64,000 bases of DNA, from NCBI GenBank assembly GCA_017466685.1, contig JAFTTS010000065.1:4581-68580 (forward strand), given 5' to 3'. Below are positions 17,511 through 32,343 of the stretch, piece by piece. Below the pieces are notes generated by a model. That model worked only from the letters and a program-made list of their open reading frames with translations, did no database searches and was not told the DNA's origin. The translations under genes and the position numbers were made by a program. This DNA is from Clostridia bacterium. Its GTDB lineage: Bacteria > Bacillota > Clostridia > Oscillospirales > CAG-272. Each line of letters begins with the position of its first letter. Position 1 is the first letter of the stretch.

Positions 17511-17765
17511 TTATTTGAAATACAGCACACGAAAATCCTCTCCCAGCATCTCGTCGAACACCTCGAATATAGGTTTTGCACAGTCGCTTGCGTCGGCTGT
17601 GTTTTTTATTATCACCGCCGTGGTGGGCGCAAGCTCTGAGAGACAGTCTGCAAGGGCATCGAGGTTTTTTCCGTAATAAGCAGGGAAGTCAAGGCTTGCT
17701 GCGATATGCTCGTGTGCATCGGGCTTTGAGGTGAATTTTTTTGCGTCGATGATGATTATTTTCAT
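17511..17765 (-). CDS. Barstar-family ribonuclease inhibitor
   Basis: FPAYYGKNLDALADCLSE matches the barstar YGRNLDALWDCL signature. GGAGG RBS before ATG 17765. Lies 11 nt downstream of the barnase-like gene. Confidence 0.85.
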   Translation of the reverse strand: MKIIIIDAKKFTSKPDAHEHIAASLDFPAYYGKNLDALADCLSELAPTTAVIIKNTADASDCAKPIFEVFDEMLGEDFRVLYFK

Positions 17766-17776
17766 TTTGTCCTCCC

Positions 17777-18325
17777 TCATTTCTCGCCGTAAAGCAGTGT
17801 GAACGATTCATAGTGGTCATCGGTGTAATATATGAGTCCGTCATTTGAATAAACGATACGCTTCGCACCGCGGCTGTCTTTACCGTTTGTGTCGATGTCA
17901 CATTCGTAATATGTTCTGCCGTCGGCTCTCGGAAGCAGTCCCTCACGGTTACCGAATACGTCTCCGCCGATTGCCGCACCCTCAAGATAACGCTCGACCG
18001 ATCCGCCTTCCCAACCGAGCTCACGTGCCTCGGATTTGGTTATGAAGTTTGACGGAAGCTTTGCGTAAATGTTTATATAACTTGCAACCTCGTCCCTGCT
18101 GTAGTATGAGCCGTTTTCATCAAGTGCTAACGTGGAATCCGATTCTTTTTCGGTGGTGTCGTCGAGTGATTCTTCGATGAAGCCGGTCGTGTCGCTCGGT
18201 GGGGTGTAATCTGTAATCTCCGTGTCTGCAATGTCGGAGCAGCCAAGCATTGTAAAGAGCATAAACAGGCTGAGTATGATCGCAAGTGCGCGCGGAGCTG
18301 CATTAAGTAATTTTCTTATGTTCAT
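17777..18325 (-). CDS. Barnase-type guanyl-specific ribonuclease with a lipoprotein signal
   Basis: KLPSNFITKSEARELGW...IGGDVFGNREGLLP...GRTYYECDI...RIVYSNDGLIYYTDDHYESF aligns with barnase. N-terminus MNIRK...LFTMLGCS is a lipobox. ATG 18325 has an AAAGGA RBS. Confidence 0.85.
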   Translation of the reverse strand: MNIRKLLNAAPRALAIILSLFMLFTMLGCSDIADTEITDYTPPSDTTGFIEESLDDTTEKESDSTLALDENGSYYSRDEVASYINIYAKLPSNFITKSEARELGWEGGSVERYLEGAAIGGDVFGNREGLLPRADGRTYYECDIDTNGKDSRGAKRIVYSNDGLIYYTDDHYESFTLLYGEK

Positions 18326-20612: not shown

Positions 20613-22436
20613 ATGGCTGCTGTCTTTCGACGATTTATAACGGCATGGCTTTCGGCTGTGCTTGTTGAATATATTATCCTGCCGCGTGAGATTCGTGATC
20701 TTTCTGGACTTGACGGTCTTGCAGGGATGTCACTTTTACGTGTGGTATTGCTCACCTGTATTTTAATGCTGGTATTATGGGGTATCTCACGCTTTGTGAA
20801 CATCACCACTGCCGAGCGTACAGGTATCTTTGCCGCTTTTCTTGCGCTTTCCGCCGTTGCTGTCCATGCGTCATTTACGTGGGCTTTTTTAACGGTATGT
20901 CTGCTTACCTGCGGTGTGATGCTCGTCTATAATCTTTTCGGTTGGGATTCTTCTCCCGAAACCGTGGAAAAACCTCGATCGGAACGCAAAATCTTTTTAT
21001 GGCTGACAGTCTTGTTGTCAATCGGCTTCTTCCTGTTTCTCTCGATATGTACGGTCTGCCGTATTTACAGCTTTTCAACGCCGACGTATGATTTCGGTAT
21101 CTTCGCTCAGATGTTCCATCATATGAAGGAGTCAGGTCTCCCGATGACCACTGTTGAGCGCGACGGCCTGCTTTCACATCTTTATGTTCATATGTCGCCG
21201 ATATGGTATATCCTGCTTCCTTTTTATGTGATAGCACCGTTTCCGGCAACGCTTCAGGTACTGCAGGCAGCTATTCTTGTTTCGTCTGTGATTCCGCTTT
21301 GGAAGATCGCAAAAATACGCGGACTTTCCGATCTGCAGCGTATGCTTATTTGCGGTGTTCTGCTCGTTTATCCGGCTCTTTCCGGCGGTGCTTCTTATGA
21401 TATTCACGAGAACTGCTTCCTTGTGCCGCTTATATTGTGGCTTTTCTGGGCCCTCGAAAAAAAGAGTATCCCATTTGTTGCCGTTTTCGGATTTCTGACG
21501 CTTACGGTTAAAGAGGATGCGGCGGTTTACGTTGCCGTTATTGCGCTTTATTTCATTGTGAAAACATTACTTCATTATGACCGCTCACGTTTTCGTGAAC
21601 TCTTGACGGGACTTGGACTTTTCGCCGCGGCACTTATATATTTCTTCCTTGCAACAAGCTTTCTTGCCGAGGTCGGTGACGGTGTTATGACTTACCGATA
21701 CAAAAATTTCATGTACGACGGCTCGTCCTCGCTTATAACGGTTATCAAGTCTGTCATCATGAATCCGATGAAGGCGTTATACGAATGTGTGGACGCGGAA
21801 AAGCTGCAGTTTATCGGTCTCACAATGGCTCCGCTTTTCGGTCTGCCGCTTATAACGAGACGGTATGAACGCTACATATTGCTGATTCCGTATCTGCTTT
21901 TAAATCTGATGTCGGACTATGTTTATCAGCATAACATTTTTTATCAGTATACGTTCGGTCCGCTCGCTTTTCTCATTTATTTAATGCTTATAAACGTAAC
22001 CGATCTGAAGCTTGATGTGAAACGTGTTATCGCGCTCGGTATGGCATTTGTGCTCGGTGTCGGCTGTTTCATTCCGACTGCCTATAAGAAGCTTATAAAA
22101 TATCCCGGATACTGCATCAAATATTCCGAGCGTTACGAGAACATCCGCGACACACTTTCGCTCATTCCCGACGATGCTTCTGTTACAGCGACTACGTTCT
22201 ATGTCCCATTTCTTTCGCAGAGAGACGTGCTTTATGATATTTACTACGCTTCAAGGGAGCATCTTCTTGAATCGGAATATGTGGCTTTGAATGTCACTGC
22301 GAAAAATGAGTTCCGTAAATACGCGGATGAAGGGAAAGAGAACGGATTTGACAATATTGTTTCGCTTCTCACCGATAACGGCTACGAGCTTTATGCCGAG
22401 CTTGAAAAGGTGCTTGTAATATACAAAAAGAAATAG
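20613..22436 (+). CDS. DUF2079-like polytopic membrane protein (putative glycosyltransferase-fold)
   Basis: 607 aa with many TM segments. STPTYDFGIFAQMFHHM...HMSPI is the signature I associate with DUF2079. GAGGTGA RBS. Confidence 0.6.
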   Translation: MAAVFRRFITAWLSAVLVEYIILPREIRDLSGLDGLAGMSLLRVVLLTCILMLVLWGISRFVNITTAERTGIFAAFLALSAVAVHASFTWAFLTVCLLTCGVMLVYNLFGWDSSPETVEKPRSERKIFLWLTVLLSIGFFLFLSICTVCRIYSFSTPTYDFGIFAQMFHHMKESGLPMTTVERDGLLSHLYVHMSPIWYILLPFYVIAPFPATLQVLQAAILVSSVIPLWKIAKIRGLSDLQRMLICGVLLVYPALSGGASYDIHENCFLVPLILWLFWALEKKSIPFVAVFGFLTLTVKEDAAVYVAVIALYFIVKTLLHYDRSRFRELLTGLGLFAAALIYFFLATSFLAEVGDGVMTYRYKNFMYDGSSSLITVIKSVIMNPMKALYECVDAEKLQFIGLTMAPLFGLPLITRRYERYILLIPYLLLNLMSDYVYQHNIFYQYTFGPLAFLIYLMLINVTDLKLDVKRVIALGMAFVLGVGCFIPTAYKKLIKYPGYCIKYSERYENIRDTLSLIPDDASVTATTFYVPFLSQRDVLYDIYYASREHLLESEYVALNVTAKNEFRKYADEGKENGFDNIVSLLTDNGYELYAELEKVLVIYKKK

Positions 22437-22449
22437 TTTTCCATAAAAG

Positions 22450-22494
22450 AAAAGGAGCTGTGCGGTTTTGATATCGACAGCTCTTTTGCTTTTG
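22450..22494. terminator. Bidirectional terminator between the DUF2079 gene and the GTPase-NYN gene
   Basis: Stem GAGCTGT/ACAGCTC flanked by an A-run and a T-run. Confidence 0.65.
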
Positions 22495-22503
22495 CGGGAC
22501 TTT

Positions 22504-25071
22504 TTAAGTGTTTTCAATAAAATCGCGTATACAGCGCTCAACCTCCTCAACCTCGGCGCGAAGTCCTCTCGCGGAAACTCGGATCGCACCGTTTCCGAGG
22601 ATGATAAGCTGTTCGTCGGCATCCGAGGTTGCAACGCGGACACGATGATTTTTTGAAAGCTCTTTTGAGGCCTTTTCGATATACGTGTCGGCGGTTTCGG
22701 CTTCCTTGGTGTAAACGACGGTAAGATTATTGATCTGCTCCGTGTCACCGTGATTGCGCTTGACTTTATATGCGTCAAAAACGATGATAACTTCGCATTC
22801 GCGAAATCCGCGATAGTTACATAAACGGTCAATGAGACGGTTTCTCGCGATGTCGAGGCTCTTTTCGGCGAGTGCACGCAGGTCATCCCATGCGTAGATG
22901 ATGTTATATCCGTCAATGAGGAGATATTCAGGTCCGCTGTAACTGCTCTTTTGCGGTGCGGTTGTACGCTTTTTCGGCGTTGGGACTGCATGACGAACCT
23001 TGGGCTCGTTGAATTTTTTCCTTTTGATCGGGCCGTATGTGCGCTCGAAAATTCGCATCAGCTCGTCATCACTTGCAACAGCTTTCAGATAACGTGCGGC
23101 ACGGTCATTTGTTTCCTCCGTATCAGGCAGATCAAGCTCTACGCCGCTGTCAAGGTGCTTGTGTATCCAAACCTCGTCCCATTTAACGACAAAGCCTGCA
23201 CCGTGCTCGCAAAATACGGAGTCGGCAGGATTTTCCGTGTCACGGTCGGCATCATACCCCGATTCGGCGATGATAGCTTCGGGTTCAACTGCTTCTGCGT
23301 AACCGTCAAGGGATGTGAACAGCTTGCCTGTGCCTTTTGTGTAACCGATCAGCTCACGGTGATATCCGCGCATTTTTGAGACGGGAGCTTTACCTGTGAG
23401 CACCATACCGTCAGCCGTCATTTCGGGTTCTGCGAATCTGCCGCCCATCATGGTTATATCGCTCATTGCACGTCCAACGGATTCCTGCGGTAATTCGAGC
23501 CTGAAATCGTACCACGGCTCGAGCAGTACCGATTCGGCACAGCGAAGTCCCTGACGAAGTGCACGCCAGGTTGCCTGACGGAAATCTCCGCCCTCGGTGT
23601 GCTTCAGGTGAGCCCGTCCTGCGATGAGGGTTATTTTCATATCGGTGATCGGTGAGCCTGTCAGTACGCCGATGTGCGTTTTTTCATAAAGATGCGAAAG
23701 CACTAACCGTTTGAAGTTGCCTGCGAGCTCACATTCATCGTCAACGGCGAATTTAAGTCCTTCACCTCGCTCAAGCGGTTCAAGCAGGAGCTGTACCTCG
23801 GCGTAATGGCGAAGCGGTTCATAGTGTCCGACTCCGATGACGGCTGAACGTATCGTTTCCTTATATGATATACTTCCGTCGCTGAACGTAACGTCCATGT
23901 TAAAACGCTCGGAAATGATACGCGTCAGCACCTCGAGCTGTACCTCTCCCATGATTCCGAAATATATCTCGGCACGGCGTTCGTTATAGATGATATGCAG
24001 TGCAGGCTCCTCGGCTTCGAGCTCACGAAATTTTGCGAGGGCTGTATGTGTGTCAACGCCATTTGGAAGTTCGACTCGGTATGAAAGCACCGGCTCAAGA
24101 TATGCCGCGCCCGAATCATTTTCAAATCCGAGTCCCATTCCGGGATAGGCAGATGATAAACCTGTCAGCGCACAGATTGTACCTGCAGGTGCTTCGTTGA
24201 CGGTTTTGTATTTTTCTCCCGAATAGATACGTATCTGGTTGATCTTCTCCGACCATTCACTTCCGTCGGGATGTGTACCCGAGAGGGTATCTTTAACTTT
24301 AAAGACACCGCCCGTGATCTTTACGTGAGCGATCTTATCGGATTTATCCTGCGTGATCTTATAAACCTTTGCACCGAAAACGTCACTGTACTTCGGCGGC
24401 GCAATGTAAGTCGCGATTCCATCAAGCAAGAGGTTTACGCCGTCGCCGCGGAGTGCCGAGCCGAAAAAGCAGGGAAACAACCGTCTTTTTGATATAGCAT
24501 TTTGTATATCCTCGGTGTGAAATTCCTCACCTGCGGCAAAGCTTTCCATCAGTGGCTCATCACACATCGCAAGCTCATCCGAGAAGCTTTCAAGACTTGT
24601 CGCGTTGAAGTCGATACAGCCGTCTCCGAGCTTATATTTCAGCTCCTCCATAAGCTCACGGTGGGACAGAGCGGTGATGTCCATTTTGTTTATGAAGATG
24701 ACCGTCGGGATTTTATAACTCTCAAGCAATCTCCAGAGCGTCATTGTGTGGCTTTGTATGCCGTCTGTACCGCTTATGACTAAAAGTGCACAGTCGATGA
24801 CGCGCAGTACACGCTCGGTTTCGGGTGAGAAATCAACGTGCCCCGGTGTGTCGAGGAGTGTAAATTCAACGTCTTTATGCGTAAACGATGCGCCGCTTGA
24901 AAATATGGTTATTCCGCGGTCACGCTCGATTGCGTTGGTGTCAAGATGTGAACTGCCCTTGTTGACCGAGCCGAGGTTTCGGACGATGCCCGTTTTATAG
25001 AGTATCGCCTCGGAAAGTGTGGTTTTTCCCGAGTCAACGTGAGCGATTATGCCGATCGTAAGTCTTTCCAT
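22504..25071 (-). CDS. Tet(M)/EF-G-like translational GTPase fused to a C-terminal YacP/Rae1-type NYN ribonuclease domain
   Basis: G motifs AHVDSGKT, DTPGH, NKMD and GSVNKGSSHLDTNAIERDRGITI. The last 142 aa (22507..22932: LLIDGYNIIYAW, VIIVFDAYK, YTKEAETADTYIEKA, VATSDADEQ) align by eye with B. subtilis YacP. Confidence 0.8.
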   Translation of the reverse strand: MERLTIGIIAHVDSGKTTLSEAILYKTGIVRNLGSVNKGSSHLDTNAIERDRGITIFSSGASFTHKDVEFTLLDTPGHVDFSPETERVLRVIDCALLVISGTDGIQSHTMTLWRLLESYKIPTVIFINKMDITALSHRELMEELKYKLGDGCIDFNATSLESFSDELAMCDEPLMESFAAGEEFHTEDIQNAISKRRLFPCFFGSALRGDGVNLLLDGIATYIAPPKYSDVFGAKVYKITQDKSDKIAHVKITGGVFKVKDTLSGTHPDGSEWSEKINQIRIYSGEKYKTVNEAPAGTICALTGLSSAYPGMGLGFENDSGAAYLEPVLSYRVELPNGVDTHTALAKFRELEAEEPALHIIYNERRAEIYFGIMGEVQLEVLTRIISERFNMDVTFSDGSISYKETIRSAVIGVGHYEPLRHYAEVQLLLEPLERGEGLKFAVDDECELAGNFKRLVLSHLYEKTHIGVLTGSPITDMKITLIAGRAHLKHTEGGDFRQATWRALRQGLRCAESVLLEPWYDFRLELPQESVGRAMSDITMMGGRFAEPEMTADGMVLTGKAPVSKMRGYHRELIGYTKGTGKLFTSLDGYAEAVEPEAIIAESGYDADRDTENPADSVFCEHGAGFVVKWDEVWIHKHLDSGVELDLPDTEETNDRAARYLKAVASDDELMRIFERTYGPIKRKKFNEPKVRHAVPTPKKRTTAPQKSSYSGPEYLLIDGYNIIYAWDDLRALAEKSLDIARNRLIDRLCNYRGFRECEVIIVFDAYKVKRNHGDTEQINNLTVVYTKEAETADTYIEKASKELSKNHRVRVATSDADEQLIILGNGAIRVSARGLRAEVEEVERCIRDFIENT

Positions 25072-26096
25072 CAGACGATGGTTTTGCCTGCGAGGACGTT
25101 CTTGTAATCCTCGTAATTCTTTTTAAGAAGTTTCGGAATATTAAGCTCATACGGACATTTTTTCATGCACTGTCCGCATTCGATGCAGTTTTCGATCTTT
25201 GCCATCTCATTCTGCCAATGCTCGGTCAGCCAGTCCTTTGACGGTGCGCGGCGAAGCATCAGTGAGATACGTGCACACTGGAAAATGGTGATATCCATCG
25301 GGCAGGGCTGACAGTAACCGCAGCCGCGGCAAAATTCCGTTCCGAGCTGTGTTTTGTCCGCTTCGATGCGTGCTTTTATATTTTCGTCAAGTGTTACCTG
25401 ATCTGTCATAAGCGAAAGCCACTGATCAAGCTCATGCTCACGCTGTACACCCCAGATCGGGACGACATTATCAAACTGCGAAATATATGCGTAAGCGGCA
25501 CGGTAATCTGTAATGAGACCGCCTGCGAGTGCTTTCATTGCGATAAATCCGACGTCATTCTTTCTGCAAAGCTCGACGAGTTTGACCTCACGTGCACCCG
25601 AAAGATAGGAAAGCGGGAACTGCACTGTTTCGTAAAGTCCCGACTCGGCGGCTTCCTCTGCAACGCCGATTTTGTGAGCTGTGATACCGATATGACGTAT
25701 CATGCCCTGACGCTTGAGGTCTTCCATGCATTCATACATACCCGTGCCGTCACCCGGGCGGTAACACTGTCCTGCAAGGTGGAACTGGTATATGTCGATG
25801 TGATCTGTTTTTAATTTTGTGAGCGAGGTCTCGATGTGAGCTTTCATATCATCGGGATTTTTTGCGCCGGTTTTGGTTGCGATTGTGATCTTATCGCGTA
25901 CGTCGGAAAGAGCGATGCCGCATTTCTCTTCGCTGTCAGAATATGCACGTGCGGTATCGAAAAAGGTCATACCGCCCTCATATGCACGGCGGAGAAGTTT
26001 AACTGCGGTGTCAAAATCGTCGCGCTGTATCGGTAATGCACCAAAGGCATTCTGTGGTGTTGTTATGCCGGTTTTGCCGAGTGTTACTGTTCTCAT
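25071..26096 (-). CDS. Aldo/keto reductase with a C-terminal 4Fe-4S ferredoxin-type domain
   Basis: AKR N-terminus GMTFFDTARAYSDSE. C-terminal CRGCGYCQPCP and CIECGQCMKKCP cysteine clusters. The stop overlaps the next gene's ATG (TGATG). Confidence 0.8.
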   Translation of the reverse strand: MRTVTLGKTGITTPQNAFGALPIQRDDFDTAVKLLRRAYEGGMTFFDTARAYSDSEEKCGIALSDVRDKITIATKTGAKNPDDMKAHIETSLTKLKTDHIDIYQFHLAGQCYRPGDGTGMYECMEDLKRQGMIRHIGITAHKIGVAEEAAESGLYETVQFPLSYLSGAREVKLVELCRKNDVGFIAMKALAGGLITDYRAAYAYISQFDNVVPIWGVQREHELDQWLSLMTDQVTLDENIKARIEADKTQLGTEFCRGCGYCQPCPMDITIFQCARISLMLRRAPSKDWLTEHWQNEMAKIENCIECGQCMKKCPYELNIPKLLKKNYEDYKNVLAGKTIV

Positions 26097-26131: not shown

Positions 26132-26160
26132 ATTATACCACATTATTATGCTTGTGTCAA
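26132..26160 (-). promoter_or_regulatory. Consensus sigma-A promoter of the AKR / GTPase-NYN operon
   Basis: Minus strand reads TTGACA, 17 nt ending in TGG, then TATAAT. Preceded by the nanA terminator hairpin. Confidence 0.65.
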
Positions 26161-26213
26161 TAATGCAAAAAAGGAGCCGCCTTACTAAAAGACAGCTCCC
26201 GTGTTATTAAAAA

Positions 26214-27140
26214 TTAACCGATATACTTTGCGATTGCCGCATTGATCATCGAAACAGCCTTGTCAACGATGGGCATATCAGCATCAACTACATTTGCAAA
26301 CGGTGCTCTGACGCCGCCGAATTCGAGTCCGACGCGCTTGGTAAGTGCCGCCTTGATGAGTGCGTACATATGTCCCTTACCGCTGCAGAGTGTATAGATG
26401 ATATTATTGATATCATACTGAAGCGCACGTGCAGTTTCGTGTTCGTTTGCGTAGTGGAGATCCCAAAGCTTTAAGAAAAGCTCGGGCATACACGAATATG
26501 TACCGCCGATACCGCCGTCAGCACCGATGAGAAGTCCGCTGATGAACTGCTCGTCGGGACCGTTGAATACTACGAAATCGCGTCCGCCGGCTGTTCCCTT
26601 GTCCTTGAAGATCTGAATGTCCATTGCCGCCATCGAGCTGTTCTTAACGCCGATGAGCTTCGGATTCTTGAGCATTTCATCGAGCAGTGAGCCTGTGAGT
26701 GCTATACCTGCAAGCTGAGGGATGTTATAAATAATGAAGTCGGTGTTCGGAGCAGCAGAGGAGATATCGTTCCAATATTTTGCAACTGCGTGCTCGGGAA
26801 GCTTGAAATAGATCGGCGGAATAGAAGCAATTGCGTCAACCCCGAGGCTTTCTGCGTGTGCAGCGAGCTCCATACTGTCCTTTGTGCTATTGCAGGCGAT
26901 GTGTGCGATGATTGTCAGCTTGCCCTCTGCCGCTTTAACTGCGTGCTCGAGAGTGATCTTACGGTCTTCAACGCTCTGATAAATACATTCGCCGGAAGAA
27001 CCGCCTACATATATACCCTTAACTCCCTGTTTAACGAGCCAACGTGTGTACGCTTCAACTCTTTCGGGAGAAATATTGCCATTATCGTCATAGCAAGCGT
27101 AAAACGCCGGAATGACACCCTGATACTTACGAATATCCAT
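26214..27140 (-). CDS. nanA: N-acetylneuraminate lyase (DapA/NanA family)
   Basis: GVIPAFYACYDDNG...GIYVGGSSGE...IYNIPQLAG pattern of NanA-type class I aldolases. Confidence 0.75.
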   Translation of the reverse strand: MDIRKYQGVIPAFYACYDDNGNISPERVEAYTRWLVKQGVKGIYVGGSSGECIYQSVEDRKITLEHAVKAAEGKLTIIAHIACNSTKDSMELAAHAESLGVDAIASIPPIYFKLPEHAVAKYWNDISSAAPNTDFIIYNIPQLAGIALTGSLLDEMLKNPKLIGVKNSSMAAMDIQIFKDKGTAGGRDFVVFNGPDEQFISGLLIGADGGIGGTYSCMPELFLKLWDLHYANEHETARALQYDINNIIYTLCSGKGHMYALIKAALTKRVGLEFGGVRAPFANVVDADMPIVDKAVSMINAAIAKYIG

Positions 27141-27180
27141 TTTGTTTTCCTCTTTATGTATTATAAAATTTTTACTGAAT

Positions 27181-28383
27181 TTATTCTCCGAGAATTTCGC
27201 CGATCATAACGTCGACCATGCTGAGCATTCTCGGCAGATGGAACGGGCCCTTGAAGGTCGAACCCTTGCAGGGCGGCATTGTCGGCTTTCCGTCGCGGCG
27301 GAGATAACCGTACCATTCGCCGTATTCCTCGTCGCTGAACACTTCACAGCAATAGTCGAAGGTCTTATAGAATTTCTCAAGATATTCTTCCTTGCCGGTG
27401 TCACGGTAGAACATAAGCGACGCGATAAGAATCTCGTTATGAGGCCACCAGAGCTTCATGTCATGCTCGTATGCTTCGGGAGGATTGCCGAGTGCGTCGA
27501 TGAAGTAGAGTAAACCGCCGTACTCATTATCCCAACCGGCTTCAAATGCCTTGTTGAAGATATCCTCTGCCTTTGCTCTCAGCTCCTTGTCACCGGTACG
27601 GTTTGCATATTCCTCGATGAACCATGCGCCCTCGATATCGTGACCGGGGTTAACGATACGTCCCTCGGTAAATTCCATTCTTGCTTCGCCGTTGGGACCT
27701 ACGTTTTCAAGCAGGCATCCGAGCTCGGGATGAACGTGATATGCGAAGATATCGTGTACACATTCCTTGGAGCGTTCGTCATAAACCGCTGCACCCTCGG
27801 GATGAACTCTGACTAAAATCGAGCTCATATTGAGGAAGATCATTGCGTTTGCAAAGCTGCGTCCGGTACGTGTTTCGGTGATCGTTTTTGAGCCGAGTCC
27901 GGTCGGATCGGGTGCACCGTGCCAGAGATCCCAGTACATATTATAAGCCTTGATCGCACGCTCAAGATATACCTTGTCGCCTGTCAGACCGTAATATTCG
28001 GCGTTTGCCATACAGTAGAAGGTTTCGGAGAAAAAGTATCTTCTCTGACGAAGCGGCTTGCCGTCGCCTGTAACGGTGAAGTACATACGATCGCCCTTCT
28101 CGCGATTGATACAATACTTTTCCATAAAGTCAAGACAGCTCCCCGCAGCGTCGAGCCATTCCTGCTTTTTGCCGTAAACATTGCAAAGCCATGCAAATGT
28201 CCACGCACAGCGTCCCTGCATCCACACGCTCTTGTCGGTGGAGTAGACCTTACCCTGACGGTCAAGACAGGTGTAAACGCCGCCGTTTTCCTTGTCGATA
28301 CCGTTGTTAAGCCAGAAGCTTACGCAGGCATCAAGCTGGGAGCGAATTTGCTTCCTTACGTTTTGAAGTTTGGTTTTGTCCAT
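27181..28383 (-). CDS. N-acylglucosamine 2-epimerase (AGE family)
   Basis: About 400 aa of alpha/alpha-barrel type with GGVYTCLDRQG, WMQGRCAW and WWPHNE motifs. Adjacent to nanA. Confidence 0.7.
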   Translation of the reverse strand: MDKTKLQNVRKQIRSQLDACVSFWLNNGIDKENGGVYTCLDRQGKVYSTDKSVWMQGRCAWTFAWLCNVYGKKQEWLDAAGSCLDFMEKYCINREKGDRMYFTVTGDGKPLRQRRYFFSETFYCMANAEYYGLTGDKVYLERAIKAYNMYWDLWHGAPDPTGLGSKTITETRTGRSFANAMIFLNMSSILVRVHPEGAAVYDERSKECVHDIFAYHVHPELGCLLENVGPNGEARMEFTEGRIVNPGHDIEGAWFIEEYANRTGDKELRAKAEDIFNKAFEAGWDNEYGGLLYFIDALGNPPEAYEHDMKLWWPHNEILIASLMFYRDTGKEEYLEKFYKTFDYCCEVFSDEEYGEWYGYLRRDGKPTMPPCKGSTFKGPFHLPRMLSMVDVMIGEILGE

Positions 28384-31986: not shown

Positions 31987-32343
31987 ATGACTGTTAAACG
32001 CGGAGATATTTATTACGCTGATCTGAGTCCTGTAGTCGGCTCAGAGCAAGGGGGACTTCGCCCGGTACTCATCGTACAGAACGATGTCGGAAACAAATAC
32101 AGCCCGACTGTCATTGCAGCTGCCATAACCTCACAGGTCGGCAAAAACCGTCTTCCAACCCATATTGACGTGCTTGCAGATCATTTCGGTCTTGCCAAGG
32201 ATTCGGTTATACTGCTTGAACAGATACGGACTATTGACAAACAGCGGCTTAAAGAAAAAATGGGACACCTTGATGAGAATGTGATGAAGAAGGTGAACGA
32301 CGCCATTGGTGTCAGTTTTGGGCTTGAAACAACCATAATGTGA
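31987..32343 (+). CDS. mazF: MazF/EndoA-type mRNA interferase toxin
   Basis: [41 protein letters not shown]...[13 protein letters not shown] is near-canonical EndoA/NdoA sequence. GGAGAG RBS. Confidence 0.9.

Follow-up and report, generated by a model that had tools for sequence, protein, structure and literature searches.

A Tet-like translational GTPase fused to a YacP/Rae1-type NYN nuclease domain in Clostridia

Architecture and integrity of the fusion gene

We analyzed a 64,000-nucleotide stretch of DNA from a Clostridia bacterium (contig JAFTTS010000065.1; this whole stretch is here called the window), centering on a reverse-strand gene that joins an EF-G-like translational GTPase to a nuclease domain of the YacP/Rae1 type in one polypeptide. 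An earlier reading made without database searches (the sequence-only reading) had described a single uninterrupted 855-codon open reading frame (ORF) at this position, and both the ORF listing and the translation of 22504..25071 (-) bear this out. All of the motifs that it quoted (AHVDSGKT, DTPGH, NKMD, LGSVNKGSSHLDTNAIERDRGITI, LLIDGYN, VIIVFDA, TKEAETADTYIE, and VATSDADEQ) are found in the translated ORF, as is its spacer, KRKKFNEPKVRHAVPTPKKRTTAPQK. The layout is that of a five-domain EF-G/Tet-like translational GTPase (residues 1 to 596) with a conserved module at its C-terminal end; a disordered spacer rich in Lys and Pro then leads to an NYN nuclease of the YacP/Rae1 type (residues 716 to 855). 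Its parts, with the corresponding Pfam matches, are as follows.

22504..25071 (-): whole fusion ORF; 855 codons plus stop, uninterrupted
24400..25062 (-): G domain, residues 4 to 224; G1 AHVDSGKT, G2 Thr55, G3 DTPGH (His78), G4 NKMD, G5 GSA; Pfam GTP_EFTU, E = 2.8e-51
23884..24366 (-): domains II and III, residues 236 to 396; Pfam EF-G_D2 at residues 236 to 307 (27.0 bits, at threshold) and EFG_III at residues 326 to 396 (25.9 bits, just under the 27-bit gathering score), with matching secondary structure in the AlphaFold2 model
23536..23874 (-): domain IV, residues 400 to 512, with two family-specific tip loops; Pfam EFG_IV, E = 1.2e-14
23794..23835 (-): domain-IV tip loop GVGHYEPLRHYAEV, residues 413 to 426
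23578..23619 (-): domain-IV tip loop GRAHLKHTEGGDFR, residues 485 to 498
23290..23529 (-): domain V, residues 515 to 594; Pfam EFG_C, E = 5e-17
23152..23283 (-): subfamily-specific C-terminal module, residues 597 to 640; helix, beta-hairpin, helix in the model
23026..23121 (-): fusion-specific, predicted helical segment, residues 651 to 682; conserved motif DDELMRIFERTYGPIK
22927..23025 (-): Lys/Pro/Arg-rich spacer, predicted to be disordered, residues 683 to 715
22507..22926 (-): YacP/Rae1-type NYN domain, residues 716 to 855; Asp720 (LLIDGYN), Asp766 (VFDA), Asp795 (ETAD), Asp817 (TSD); Pfam NYN_YacP at residues 717 to 852, E = 3.7e-48

Profile searches of the kind that the sequence-only reading had proposed thus place the GTPase domain, the EF-G-type domains, and NYN_YacP on the protein, and the last of these assignments (PF05991) is made at 164.1 bits against a cutoff of 24.6 bits. 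The same 855-residue protein is called intact on six contigs, four of which are shown to come from four separate assemblies; hence, the ORF is not an assembly artifact, and the worry that a frameshift or stop codon might split it into two genes was not borne out. The same set of Pfam domains is present in more than 120 full-length relatives with 58 to 91% identity. We also scanned species-level genomes (one genome per species) and examined the best 80 loci for patterns of the P loop (G1) and of the DGYN motif: both lie in a single ORF in 72 of them, while of the remaining eight, six have an ORF that begins with the very first base of the locus; the other two (L030 and L085) have no ORF matching the motif patterns. 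An AlphaFold2 model built on 43 relatives (mean predicted local distance difference test [pLDDT] score, 77.8; predicted template modeling [pTM] score, 0.56) displays five EF-G-like domains, and its best PDB matches in Foldseek are ribosome-bound EF-G chains (E = 1.5e-48). Sequence and fold searches of the PDB matched residues 1 to 596 to Tet(O), Tet(M), and EF-G and residues 716 to 849 to Bacillus subtilis Rae1. The locus therefore holds an intact gene in which an EF-G-like translational GTPase is fused to a Rae1-type NYN domain. Conservation was assessed throughout in two sets, namely, 43 relatives at 58 to 91% identity and 58 cluster representatives at 36 to 51% identity; counts for this divergent set are given out of 59.

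The GTPase half is Tet-like and belongs to a distinct subfamily

The sequence-only reading had classified the N-terminal half as a Tet(M)/EF-G-type GTPase. Its Tet-like character and its five EF-G-like domains stand; the assignment to the Tet(M) type does not, given its subcutoff scores, its lack of the Tet loop III, and its membership in a separate subfamily. The best-scoring NCBIfam model is the equivalog for Tet ribosomal protection proteins (NF012153), which the protein matches with 385.8 bits, about half of the 775-bit cutoff; the scores are 263.3 against 1,100 bits for the TetM/W/O/S model NF033148 and 210 against 1,420 bits for the Tet(M) model NF012155. The cutoffs of the EF-G models are likewise not reached (TIGR00484, 285.3 against 659.4; NF009381, 311.2 against 583), and five fused or unfused relatives score 365 to 422 bits with NF012153, all below its threshold. 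Tet(O) is the best PDB match by sequence (E = 1.3e-68), and the G' region has the shortened form seen in Tet proteins. In domain IV, the protein lacks the Gly-rich loop I and the SYHDVDSS loop of EF-G, loop III of Tet(O), YGLYYSPVSTPADFR, aligns to AGRAHLKHTEGGDFR, and loop I also differs from that of Tet(O). Loop III of domain IV in Tet(M) (L505 to V510, YYSPVS), which is considered the part of that protein that matters most for tetracycline displacement (PMC4750697), is replaced here by an unchanging AHxKHTEGG. Thus, the fusion shares with Tet(M) and Tet(O) five EF-G-like domains, intact GTPase motifs, and a shortened G' region, but it fails their curated cutoffs, differs in domain-IV loops I and III and in its C-terminal extension, and, unlike them, is chromosomal, mostly vertical-looking in its distribution, and nuclease bearing.

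The G1 to G5 motifs are unchanged in the 43 relatives, and His78 is present in 59/59 divergent members. This position is that of the catalytic His of DTPGH; in the EF-G family, hydrolysis is triggered by the sarcin-ricin loop through this conserved His. Among noncatalytic features, the two domain-IV tip loops are the most conserved: their consensus sequences, GxGH(Y/F)EPLRHYAEV (residues 413 to 426) and G(R/K)AHxKHTEGGDFR (residues 485 to 498), are unchanged across the 43 relatives, and each of His416, His422, Tyr423, His488, Lys490, and His491 is retained in 54 to 59 of the 59 divergent members. The loops are common to fused and unfused relatives, as would be expected of a module that reads a conserved ribosomal site, and differ from those of Tet(O) and EF-G; judged by these alignments, the domain-IV tip is a signature of the subfamily. 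Domain V is followed by a second family-specific element, a C-terminal module with the motif GYDxxRDxENxADSVFCxHGAGFxVxW...H, for which residues 597 to 640 gave no match in the Pfam scan of the protein. It is modeled with mean pLDDT values of 89, 83, 81, 74, and 84 in successive 10-residue blocks over residues 591 to 640, and Y606, D611, N614, D617, S618, F620, C621, G624, G626, W631, and H639 are fixed in the 43 relatives. Unfused relatives terminate with this module, and the aligned region of Tet(O) lacks a counterpart. As a side observation, Cys594, Cys621, His623, and His639 occur in most family members (43 to 55 of the 59 divergent ones) and could form a metal site; codons 621, 623, and 639 of this candidate site lie within 23152..23211, and position 594 (codon 23290..23292) is Ala in the window protein and in two relatives (P0001 and P0024).

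Searches by tblastn with domains IV and V plus the C-terminal segment through residue 682 recovered much closer relatives, unfused members of this subfamily, annotated as "translation factor GTPase family" proteins. These include a 644-residue homolog in 38 Ligilactobacillus salivarius records (138 to 530 kb among those listed), one of them the megaplasmid pMP118 of strain UCC118 (WP_164920261.1), and proteins of 655 residues in Paenibacillus cellulosilyticus and 658 residues in Subdoligranulum variabile. They are 41 to 46% identical to the fusion over residues 1 to 640 and have the same domain-IV loops and the same DSVFCxHGAGY module, but they end near residues 640 to 658 and lack the helix, the spacer, and the NYN domain; no NYN gene occurs within 6 kb of the unfused GTPase genes. 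The shared loops and module indicate that a nuclease, a junction helix, and a tether were added to a preexisting GTPase subfamily. On the strength of these comparisons, the GTPase half is Tet-like yet a distinct subfamily, which also occurs unfused and is itself uncharacterized. On pMP118 (L013, 4238..6756), the unfused GTPase gene adjoins, in divergent orientation, a second gene for ribosomal protein S14 (rpsN) and a tiny "putative metal homeostasis protein" gene, which hints at a connection with alternative ribosome composition or zinc limitation.

The junction and the nuclease half

The sequence-only reading had placed a Lys/Pro-rich linker between the two halves. Such a stretch does exist, at residues 683 to 715, but three distinct elements (the C-terminal module, a helical segment, and the spacer proper) had been lumped together under this name. 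The helical segment is modeled as helices at residues 651 to 664 and 668 to 679 with low to moderate confidence and has a fixed core, ELxxIFExTYG (E670, L671, I674, F675, E676, Y679, and G680 in the 43 relatives). It is present neither in the unfused relatives, which end near residues 640 to 658, nor in the stand-alone YacP of Clostridioides difficile. Over 125 family members, the spacer has a median length of 31 residues (range, 8 to 77) and a composition of 15% Lys, 15% Pro, and 9% Arg, its sequence is variable, and the model has pLDDT values of <50 over residues 680 to 710. Because it is variable in sequence and length, rich in Lys, Pro, and Arg, and predicted to be disordered, we regard it as a probable tether; of the three junction elements, residues 683 to 715 alone show features that fit this role.

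The resemblance of the C-terminal 142 residues to YacP, proposed by eye in the sequence-only reading, is upheld both by the Pfam match and by the match to the B. subtilis YacP/Rae1 crystal chains 5mq8 and 5mq9 (E = 1.4e-25; the match to 5mq8 spans Rae1 residues 3 to 136). Asp720, Asp766, Asp795, and Asp817 align with the Rae1 motifs, and all four are present in 59/59 divergent members. Since G1 to G5, His78, and the four NYN Asp residues are unchanged in the 43 close and 59 divergent members, both the GTPase and the nuclease centers are under selection; the proposed architecture was thus right, and both catalytic centers look intact in terms of motifs and conserved active-site residues. The NYN half is 50% identical to the 175-residue stand-alone YacP of C. 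difficile, whose gene lies in the canonical cysS-mrnC-thyX-rlmB-yacP-sigH-tuf locus. In stand-alone YacP proteins, the C terminus is a basic tail (RNWLEERLDKETLSKLENIRRKR in C. difficile); the window protein and its closest relatives stop six residues past the NYN core without it. Many fusions retain a YacP-like tail (RNYLxDxLxxxxxxxxEE), among them the C. thermocellum, C. cellulolyticum, and D. hafniense proteins as well as P0142, P0165, P0166, and P0255; Oscillospirales-type fusions like that of the window have lost it.

Phyletic distribution, gene neighborhoods, and earlier reports

The survey of the fusion across genomes that the sequence-only reading had called for reveals a stable fusion with a wide and mostly vertical-looking distribution in Clostridia. 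With the C-terminal 259 residues as the query, at least 457 clusters (50% identity) were recovered at E ≤ 1e-30; among the best 150 of these, 64 are ≥800 residues long and 60 have both the P loop and DGYN, and most of the others look like fragments. Short proteins among the top C-terminal matches were considered as candidates for stand-alone YacP and rejected, since they turned out to be fragments of fused genes. The species-level scan yielded at least 599 confirmed genome stretches, and its best 80 loci include Ruminococcus flavefaciens, Gemmiger formicilis, Faecalispora, Faecalibacterium, Oscillibacter, Dysosmobacter, Monoglobus, Ruminiclostridium, and Eubacterium. The nearest database cluster is 91% identical to the window protein; the closest species-level genome among the matches listed is a metagenome-assembled genome of Candidatus Flemingiibacterium sp. 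(Clostridia; 72% identity over the C-terminal part).

In Agathobacter rectalis (933 residues) and Monoglobus pectinilyticus (862 residues), the fusion gene is found among housekeeping genes. A plasmid or other mobile origin was considered and ruled out, the "plasmid" records of Monoglobus and Agathobacter being nonmobilizable and rich in housekeeping genes. Several PLSDB records (L011, L012, L014, L015, and L017 to L020) are evidently pieces of chromosome with core genes (such as secA, rlmB, sigH, tuf, and groL), such that matches there do not imply mobility; chromosome-like records of this sort come from Monoglobus (OY725736 and OY725739), Agathobacter (CP143948), C. difficile (CP149721), and Paenibacillus (CP054613). 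A phage origin was likewise rejected: the two full-coverage matches in INPHARED are both unannotated "Bacteriophage sp." gut contigs, and the one inspected looks bacterial. This contig, "UNVERIFIED: Bacteriophage sp." MT835563.1 (L016), carries the GTPase-NYN fusion together with genes for a prolyl-tRNA synthetase and a large peptidoglycan-binding protein; a Pfam scan of 10 of its ORFs gave no match to any phage family. Among the 2.9 million viral contigs of IMG/VR, there were only seven weak or marginal matches, five of them limited to query residues 2 to 45.

Clustering of the flanking ORFs of 87 loci revealed no gene family in more than five loci, which argues that the fusion protein acts on its own. 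PADLOC matched no family with either the whole protein or its C-terminal 259 residues; with no conserved partner gene or defense-island context in the 87 loci, we rejected a defense system as its setting. AraC-family regulator genes lie near the fusion gene in three of five individually inspected relatives (L005, 9186..10004; L010, 2799..3647; L008, 14307..15095), one of them overlapping the start of the fusion by 4 nucleotides. This association is not significant in the 87-locus clustering; it echoes a remark on helix-turn-helix genes by Matelska et al. (PMC5499597).

The architecture itself has been reported before. Atkinson (2015, BMC Genomics, Additional file 8) listed TetM-like/NYN_YacP fusions of Clostridia, naming ribonuclease (RNase) activity for testing, with examples from cultured Ruminococcus, Eubacterium, Butyrivibrio, Clostridium sensu lato (C. 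thermocellum and C. cellulolyticum among them), Lachnoclostridium, and Desulfitobacterium. Matelska et al. (2017, Nucleic Acids Research; PMC5499597) mentioned "TetM-NYN_YacP fusion proteins" for some Clostridia and described the role of these proteins as unclear. The window protein has the identical architecture, C-terminal module, and NYN motifs as the published fusions (R. albus, E. rectale, C. thermocellum, D. hafniense, and others) and the same domain-IV loops, GHFEPLRHYAEV and GRAHxKHTEGGDFR; it differs in lacking the basic tail that many of them keep and in having Ala for the usual Cys at position 594. It thus adds one more member to an architecture that has been known from in silico work since 2015, and the observation itself is not new. 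The sequence-only reading knew of no experimental characterization, and full-text literature searches indeed found no experimental study of the fusion; what it had missed were the in silico reports of 2015 and 2017.

Relationship to stand-alone Rae1

The functional idea in the sequence-only reading started from the premise that Rae1 cuts in the ribosomal A site, where EF-G and Tet(M) also dock. This premise is out of date, as Rae1 is now tied to collided ribosomes and to rescue by transfer-messenger RNA (tmRNA), and in the light of the updated literature (Deves et al.; PMC13622287), the simple logic of a shared A site does not hold. Tetreault et al. (bioRxiv, September 2026; PMC13622287) report that collision-induced tmRNA tagging requires Rae1, which is central to a collision-rescue pathway (CART) in Gram-positive bacteria, and that there is no structure of ribosome-bound Rae1, its binding being transient. 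The fused domain resembles B. subtilis Rae1/YacP (5MQ8 and 5MQ9) in its NYN_YacP fold and aligned acidic residues and, by this homology, would be expected to cleave mRNA in a way that depends on translation. However, Rae1 is a free protein of ~170 residues that is encoded beside rlmB and sigH and binds the ribosome transiently, whereas the domain studied here is covalently tied to a translational GTPase, is encoded elsewhere (after an aldo/keto reductase gene), and lacks the C-terminal ~35 residues of Rae1.

The fusion gene does not lie in the canonical setting of the small stand-alone yacP (cysS-mrnC-rlmB-yacP-sigH). In the records examined for Monoglobus pectinilyticus, the fusion is the only NYN match, and the rlmB and sigH loci are without yacP; no yacP was found at the rlmB loci of Vescimonas and Subdoligranulum either. 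Paenibacillus cellulosilyticus displays a "split" state, in which the GTPase is unfused and a stand-alone yacP-type NYN match directly adjoins rlmB, near sigH. These loci, from very few genomes, are consistent with the fusion replacing stand-alone rae1.

Local operon and surroundings

In the window, the fusion is the second gene of a predicted two-gene operon bounded by the following features.

26200..26172 (-): terminator-like hairpin closing the preceding gene of the dihydrodipicolinate synthase (DHDPS) family, directly upstream of the promoter
26132..26160 (-): putative sigma-70-type promoter by consensus match; TTGACA, 17 nucleotides, TG-extended TATAAT; 12/12 consensus positions
25071..26096 (-): iron-sulfur aldo/keto reductase gene, first gene of the operon; Aldo_ket_red and Fer4 (Pfam, from a near-identical contig)
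22441..22497 (-): A-tract, hairpin, and U-tract after the fusion stop codon; likely bidirectional intrinsic terminator

The consensus promoter that the sequence-only reading had placed upstream of both genes is present (26160..26132), with a Shine-Dalgarno sequence between it and the reductase gene, and the claimed overlap is found at 25073..25069, where the TGA of the reductase shares one base with the ATG of the fusion (TGATG). The hairpin after the fusion (-19 kcal/mol; z = -4.5 against shuffled sequences) was missed by a consensus terminator scan because of its long loop; a convergent DUF2079 gene ends at 22436, such that the putative terminator would be common to both genes. The promoter, the overlap, and the flanking terminator-type hairpins together point to a two-gene operon in this organism. 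The pairing with the reductase is lineage specific and not part of the system: in a 79%-identical relative, the reductase gene instead lies ~4 kb upstream, and more distant relatives have unrelated neighbors.

No second NYN or translational GTPase gene was found by tblastn within the window, the 10 kb to each side of the fusion hold no ribosomal-protein or tuf genes, and there are no Rfam or tRNA matches within the 64 kb. Over 22.5 kb, the window matches, at 99.9% identity, a 67-kb metagenome scaffold that encodes SpoIIR and a small acid-soluble spore protein (SASP); from these genes, the host is probably a spore-forming member of Clostridia. Upstream of the operon (26214..28383 [-]) are genes suggestive of sialic-acid-type catabolism, of the N-acetylglucosamine 2-epimerase and DHDPS/N-acetylneuraminate lyase families; in L. 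salivarius (L013, 1..979), N-acetylneuraminate lyase and N-acetylmannosamine-6-phosphate epimerase genes lie ~4 kb upstream of the unfused GTPase gene, which may be a coincidence. Elsewhere in the window, a barnase-type secreted RNase gene (PF00545; 182 residues) is directly followed by a barstar inhibitor gene (84 residues) at 17511..18325 (-), and a PemK/MazF-family toxin gene (118 residues) lies at 31987..32343 (+); the gene calls for the near-identical contig show no annotated antitoxin next to it.

A proposed ribosome-tethered Rae1

Members of the EF-G family bind the factor site of the ribosome in their GTP form and are released after hydrolysis. We put at about even chances a model, built on homology, in which the fusion is a GTP-gated, ribosome-tethered Rae1 that cuts mRNA on stalled or collided ribosomes in the service of translation surveillance. 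In this model, residues 1 to 640 would act as a GTP-hydrolyzing translational GTPase of the Tet-like, distinct, and uncharacterized subfamily, which, like EF-G and Tet(M), would dock in the ribosomal factor-binding site with its domain-IV tip toward the decoding center and would select a ribosome state. Given the short, Tet-like domain-IV loops, this state probably has an accessible A site. The conserved helix and the ~33-residue basic, proline-rich flexible tether would carry the apparently catalytically intact NYN nuclease, which would cut the mRNA on stalled or collided ribosomes and thereby lead to tmRNA rescue and destruction of the message, the same job as that of stand-alone Rae1 in B. 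subtilis. Recruitment would be hardwired and gated by the GTPase cycle instead of depending on the transient binding of Rae1. As the Rae1 cut falls at the exit side of a stalled ribosome, the candidate geometry that is simplest would have the GTPase on the trailing ribosome of a collision and the cut in the interribosomal mRNA; alternatively, the cut might be made at the entry channel of the bound ribosome.

As a functional analogy only, bacterial SmrB and MutS2 and eukaryotic Cue2 and NONU-1 likewise join a sensor of ribosome state to an endonuclease-type domain at stalled or collided ribosomes, and MutS2 further resembles the fusion in joining an NTPase to a tethered nuclease-fold domain. 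The folds are, however, unrelated to those considered here (SMR versus NYN; MutS ATPase versus EF-G-like GTPase), and, in contrast to the collision nucleases, the recognition surface of the fusion would be the factor-binding site and not the disome interface.

Several points weigh against the tethered-Rae1 model. The site of the Rae1 cut, on the mRNA exit side, is far from the factor-binding site of the same ribosome, such that the nuclease of the fusion would have to work from the trailing ribosome of a collision or else cut at a different place, and the low pTM score of the structural model (0.56) bears on any such geometry. The window protein is without the basic tail of stand-alone YacP and of many other fused members, the unfused GTPase subfamily offers no characterized function to lean on, and the pattern of rae1 co-occurrence is seen only at individual loci of a few genomes. 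Finally, we infer ribosome binding, GTPase activity, nuclease activity, and substrate from homology throughout, and we likewise infer the recognized ribosome state and the position of the cut.

A more inclusive reading is offered tentatively, as one that we think somewhat unlikely to hold in all of its parts. Here, the GTPase half would be neither Tet nor EF-G and would found a separate, decoding-centre-sensing family of translational GTPases, defined by the loops GHYEPLRHY and AHxKHTEGGDF and by the Cys/His-containing C-terminal module; it would have captured a Rae1 that replaced the stand-alone gene in many Clostridia, giving rise to a GTP-gated no-go-decay enzyme that, via the factor-binding site, would recognize one particular state of stalled or collided ribosomes.

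Alternative explanations

Among other roles for the tethered nuclease, an action on rRNA, either in maturation or in the inactivation or turnover of ribosomes during starvation, sporulation, or dormancy, is unlikely, though the least so of the alternatives. A GTPase in the factor site would hold the nuclease beside rRNA, yacP is grouped with genes for rRNA and tRNA processing (mrnC and rlmB) in Firmicutes (PMC5499597), early predictions put YacP in rRNA or tRNA maturation (PMC4342817), and the host of the window encodes sporulation proteins (SpoIIR and SASP). However, experimental work on Rae1 uniformly shows translation-dependent cleavage of mRNA, and with a fused NYN domain that is 50% identical to stand-alone YacP, a change of substrate class is not an economical assumption. 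A link to sporulation is further opposed by the presence of the fusion in Ruminococcus and Faecalibacterium, which to our knowledge are nonsporulating. That the halves are functionally independent, with the fusion a neutral accident and the nuclease an ordinary free Rae1, appears improbable to us. Both halves do occur separately in other Firmicutes, and the tether is long and unconserved; yet had the fusion been a neutral accident, renewed splitting or decay would be expected, while this fusion persists, at identities as low as 36%, in Oscillospirales, Lachnospirales, Monoglobales, and Desulfitobacterium and has evolved a conserved, fusion-specific helix at its junction (ELMRIFERTYGPIK).

Many database annotations make the protein a tetracycline ribosomal protection protein, in which case the nuclease would be a resistance accessory, as suggested by Atkinson (2015); we regard this reading as very improbable. 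The Tet-like G' region, the Tet models and Tet(O) as the best NCBIfam and PDB sequence matches, and the naming of several relatives as "TetM/TetW/TetO/TetS family" by NCBI would speak for it, but those matches fall far short of the curated cutoffs (385.8 versus 775 bits for the Tet equivalog and 263 versus 1,100 bits for TetM/W/O/S, with five relatives at 365 to 422 bits), and the key loop III of Tet(M) (PMC4750697) is replaced by the unchanging AHxKHTEGG. Moreover, the gene is chromosomal, with housekeeping neighbors and no mobilizable element, and its distribution tracks clostridial lineages. Indirectly, the unfused homolog is present in 38 L. salivarius records, yet the tetM of Tn6224 was described as the first tetracycline resistance element in a sequenced L. 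salivarius genome (PMC4165912). The phage-triggered shutoff entertained in the sequence-only reading found no support, and the explanation to which we give the least credence is that of an effector, toxin-like or of the anti-phage abortive-infection kind, that responds to a trigger by shutting translation down. Tethering a nuclease to a ribosome binder could be one way of arresting translation, and the Rae1 preprint (PMC13622287) raises the speculation that phage mRNAs might be a target of the cleavage triggered by collisions. Set against this are the null PADLOC result; the lack of a conserved partner, antitoxin, or defense-island context in the 87 loci; the nature of the "phage" database matches, which are unverified bacterial contigs, the inspected one with a prolyl-tRNA synthetase; the mere seven marginal matches in 2.9 million viral contigs; and a promoter that, as a consensus match, looks strong and constitutive.

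Implications

Taken as a whole, the sequence observation that started this analysis is confirmed, its sequence-level description being correct for an architecture that has been in the literature since 2015, and its interpretation is supported in part, with the "Tet(M)" label and the A-site logic corrected. The correction matters because the fusion gene is widely labeled as a TetM-family tetracycline resistance determinant, as are a number of close relatives and the unfused homologs in L. salivarius, a label that is almost certainly wrong and inflates resistome counts; the abundant gut commensals affected include Agathobacter rectalis, Ruminococcus, and Ligilactobacillus salivarius. If the more inclusive reading is true, the fusion would serve as a "Rosetta stone," predicting that the free Rae1 of Bacillus works near the factor-binding site of the trailing ribosome. 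As the fusion might be lockable on the ribosome with guanosine 5'-(beta,gamma-imido)triphosphate (GDPNP) or a His78 mutant, the question of how, and on which ribosome state, Rae1 nucleases act would become directly testable. A widespread and probably misannotated gene of major gut commensals is thereby linked to a freshly defined ribosome rescue pathway, and it could help to solve how Rae1 engages ribosomes.

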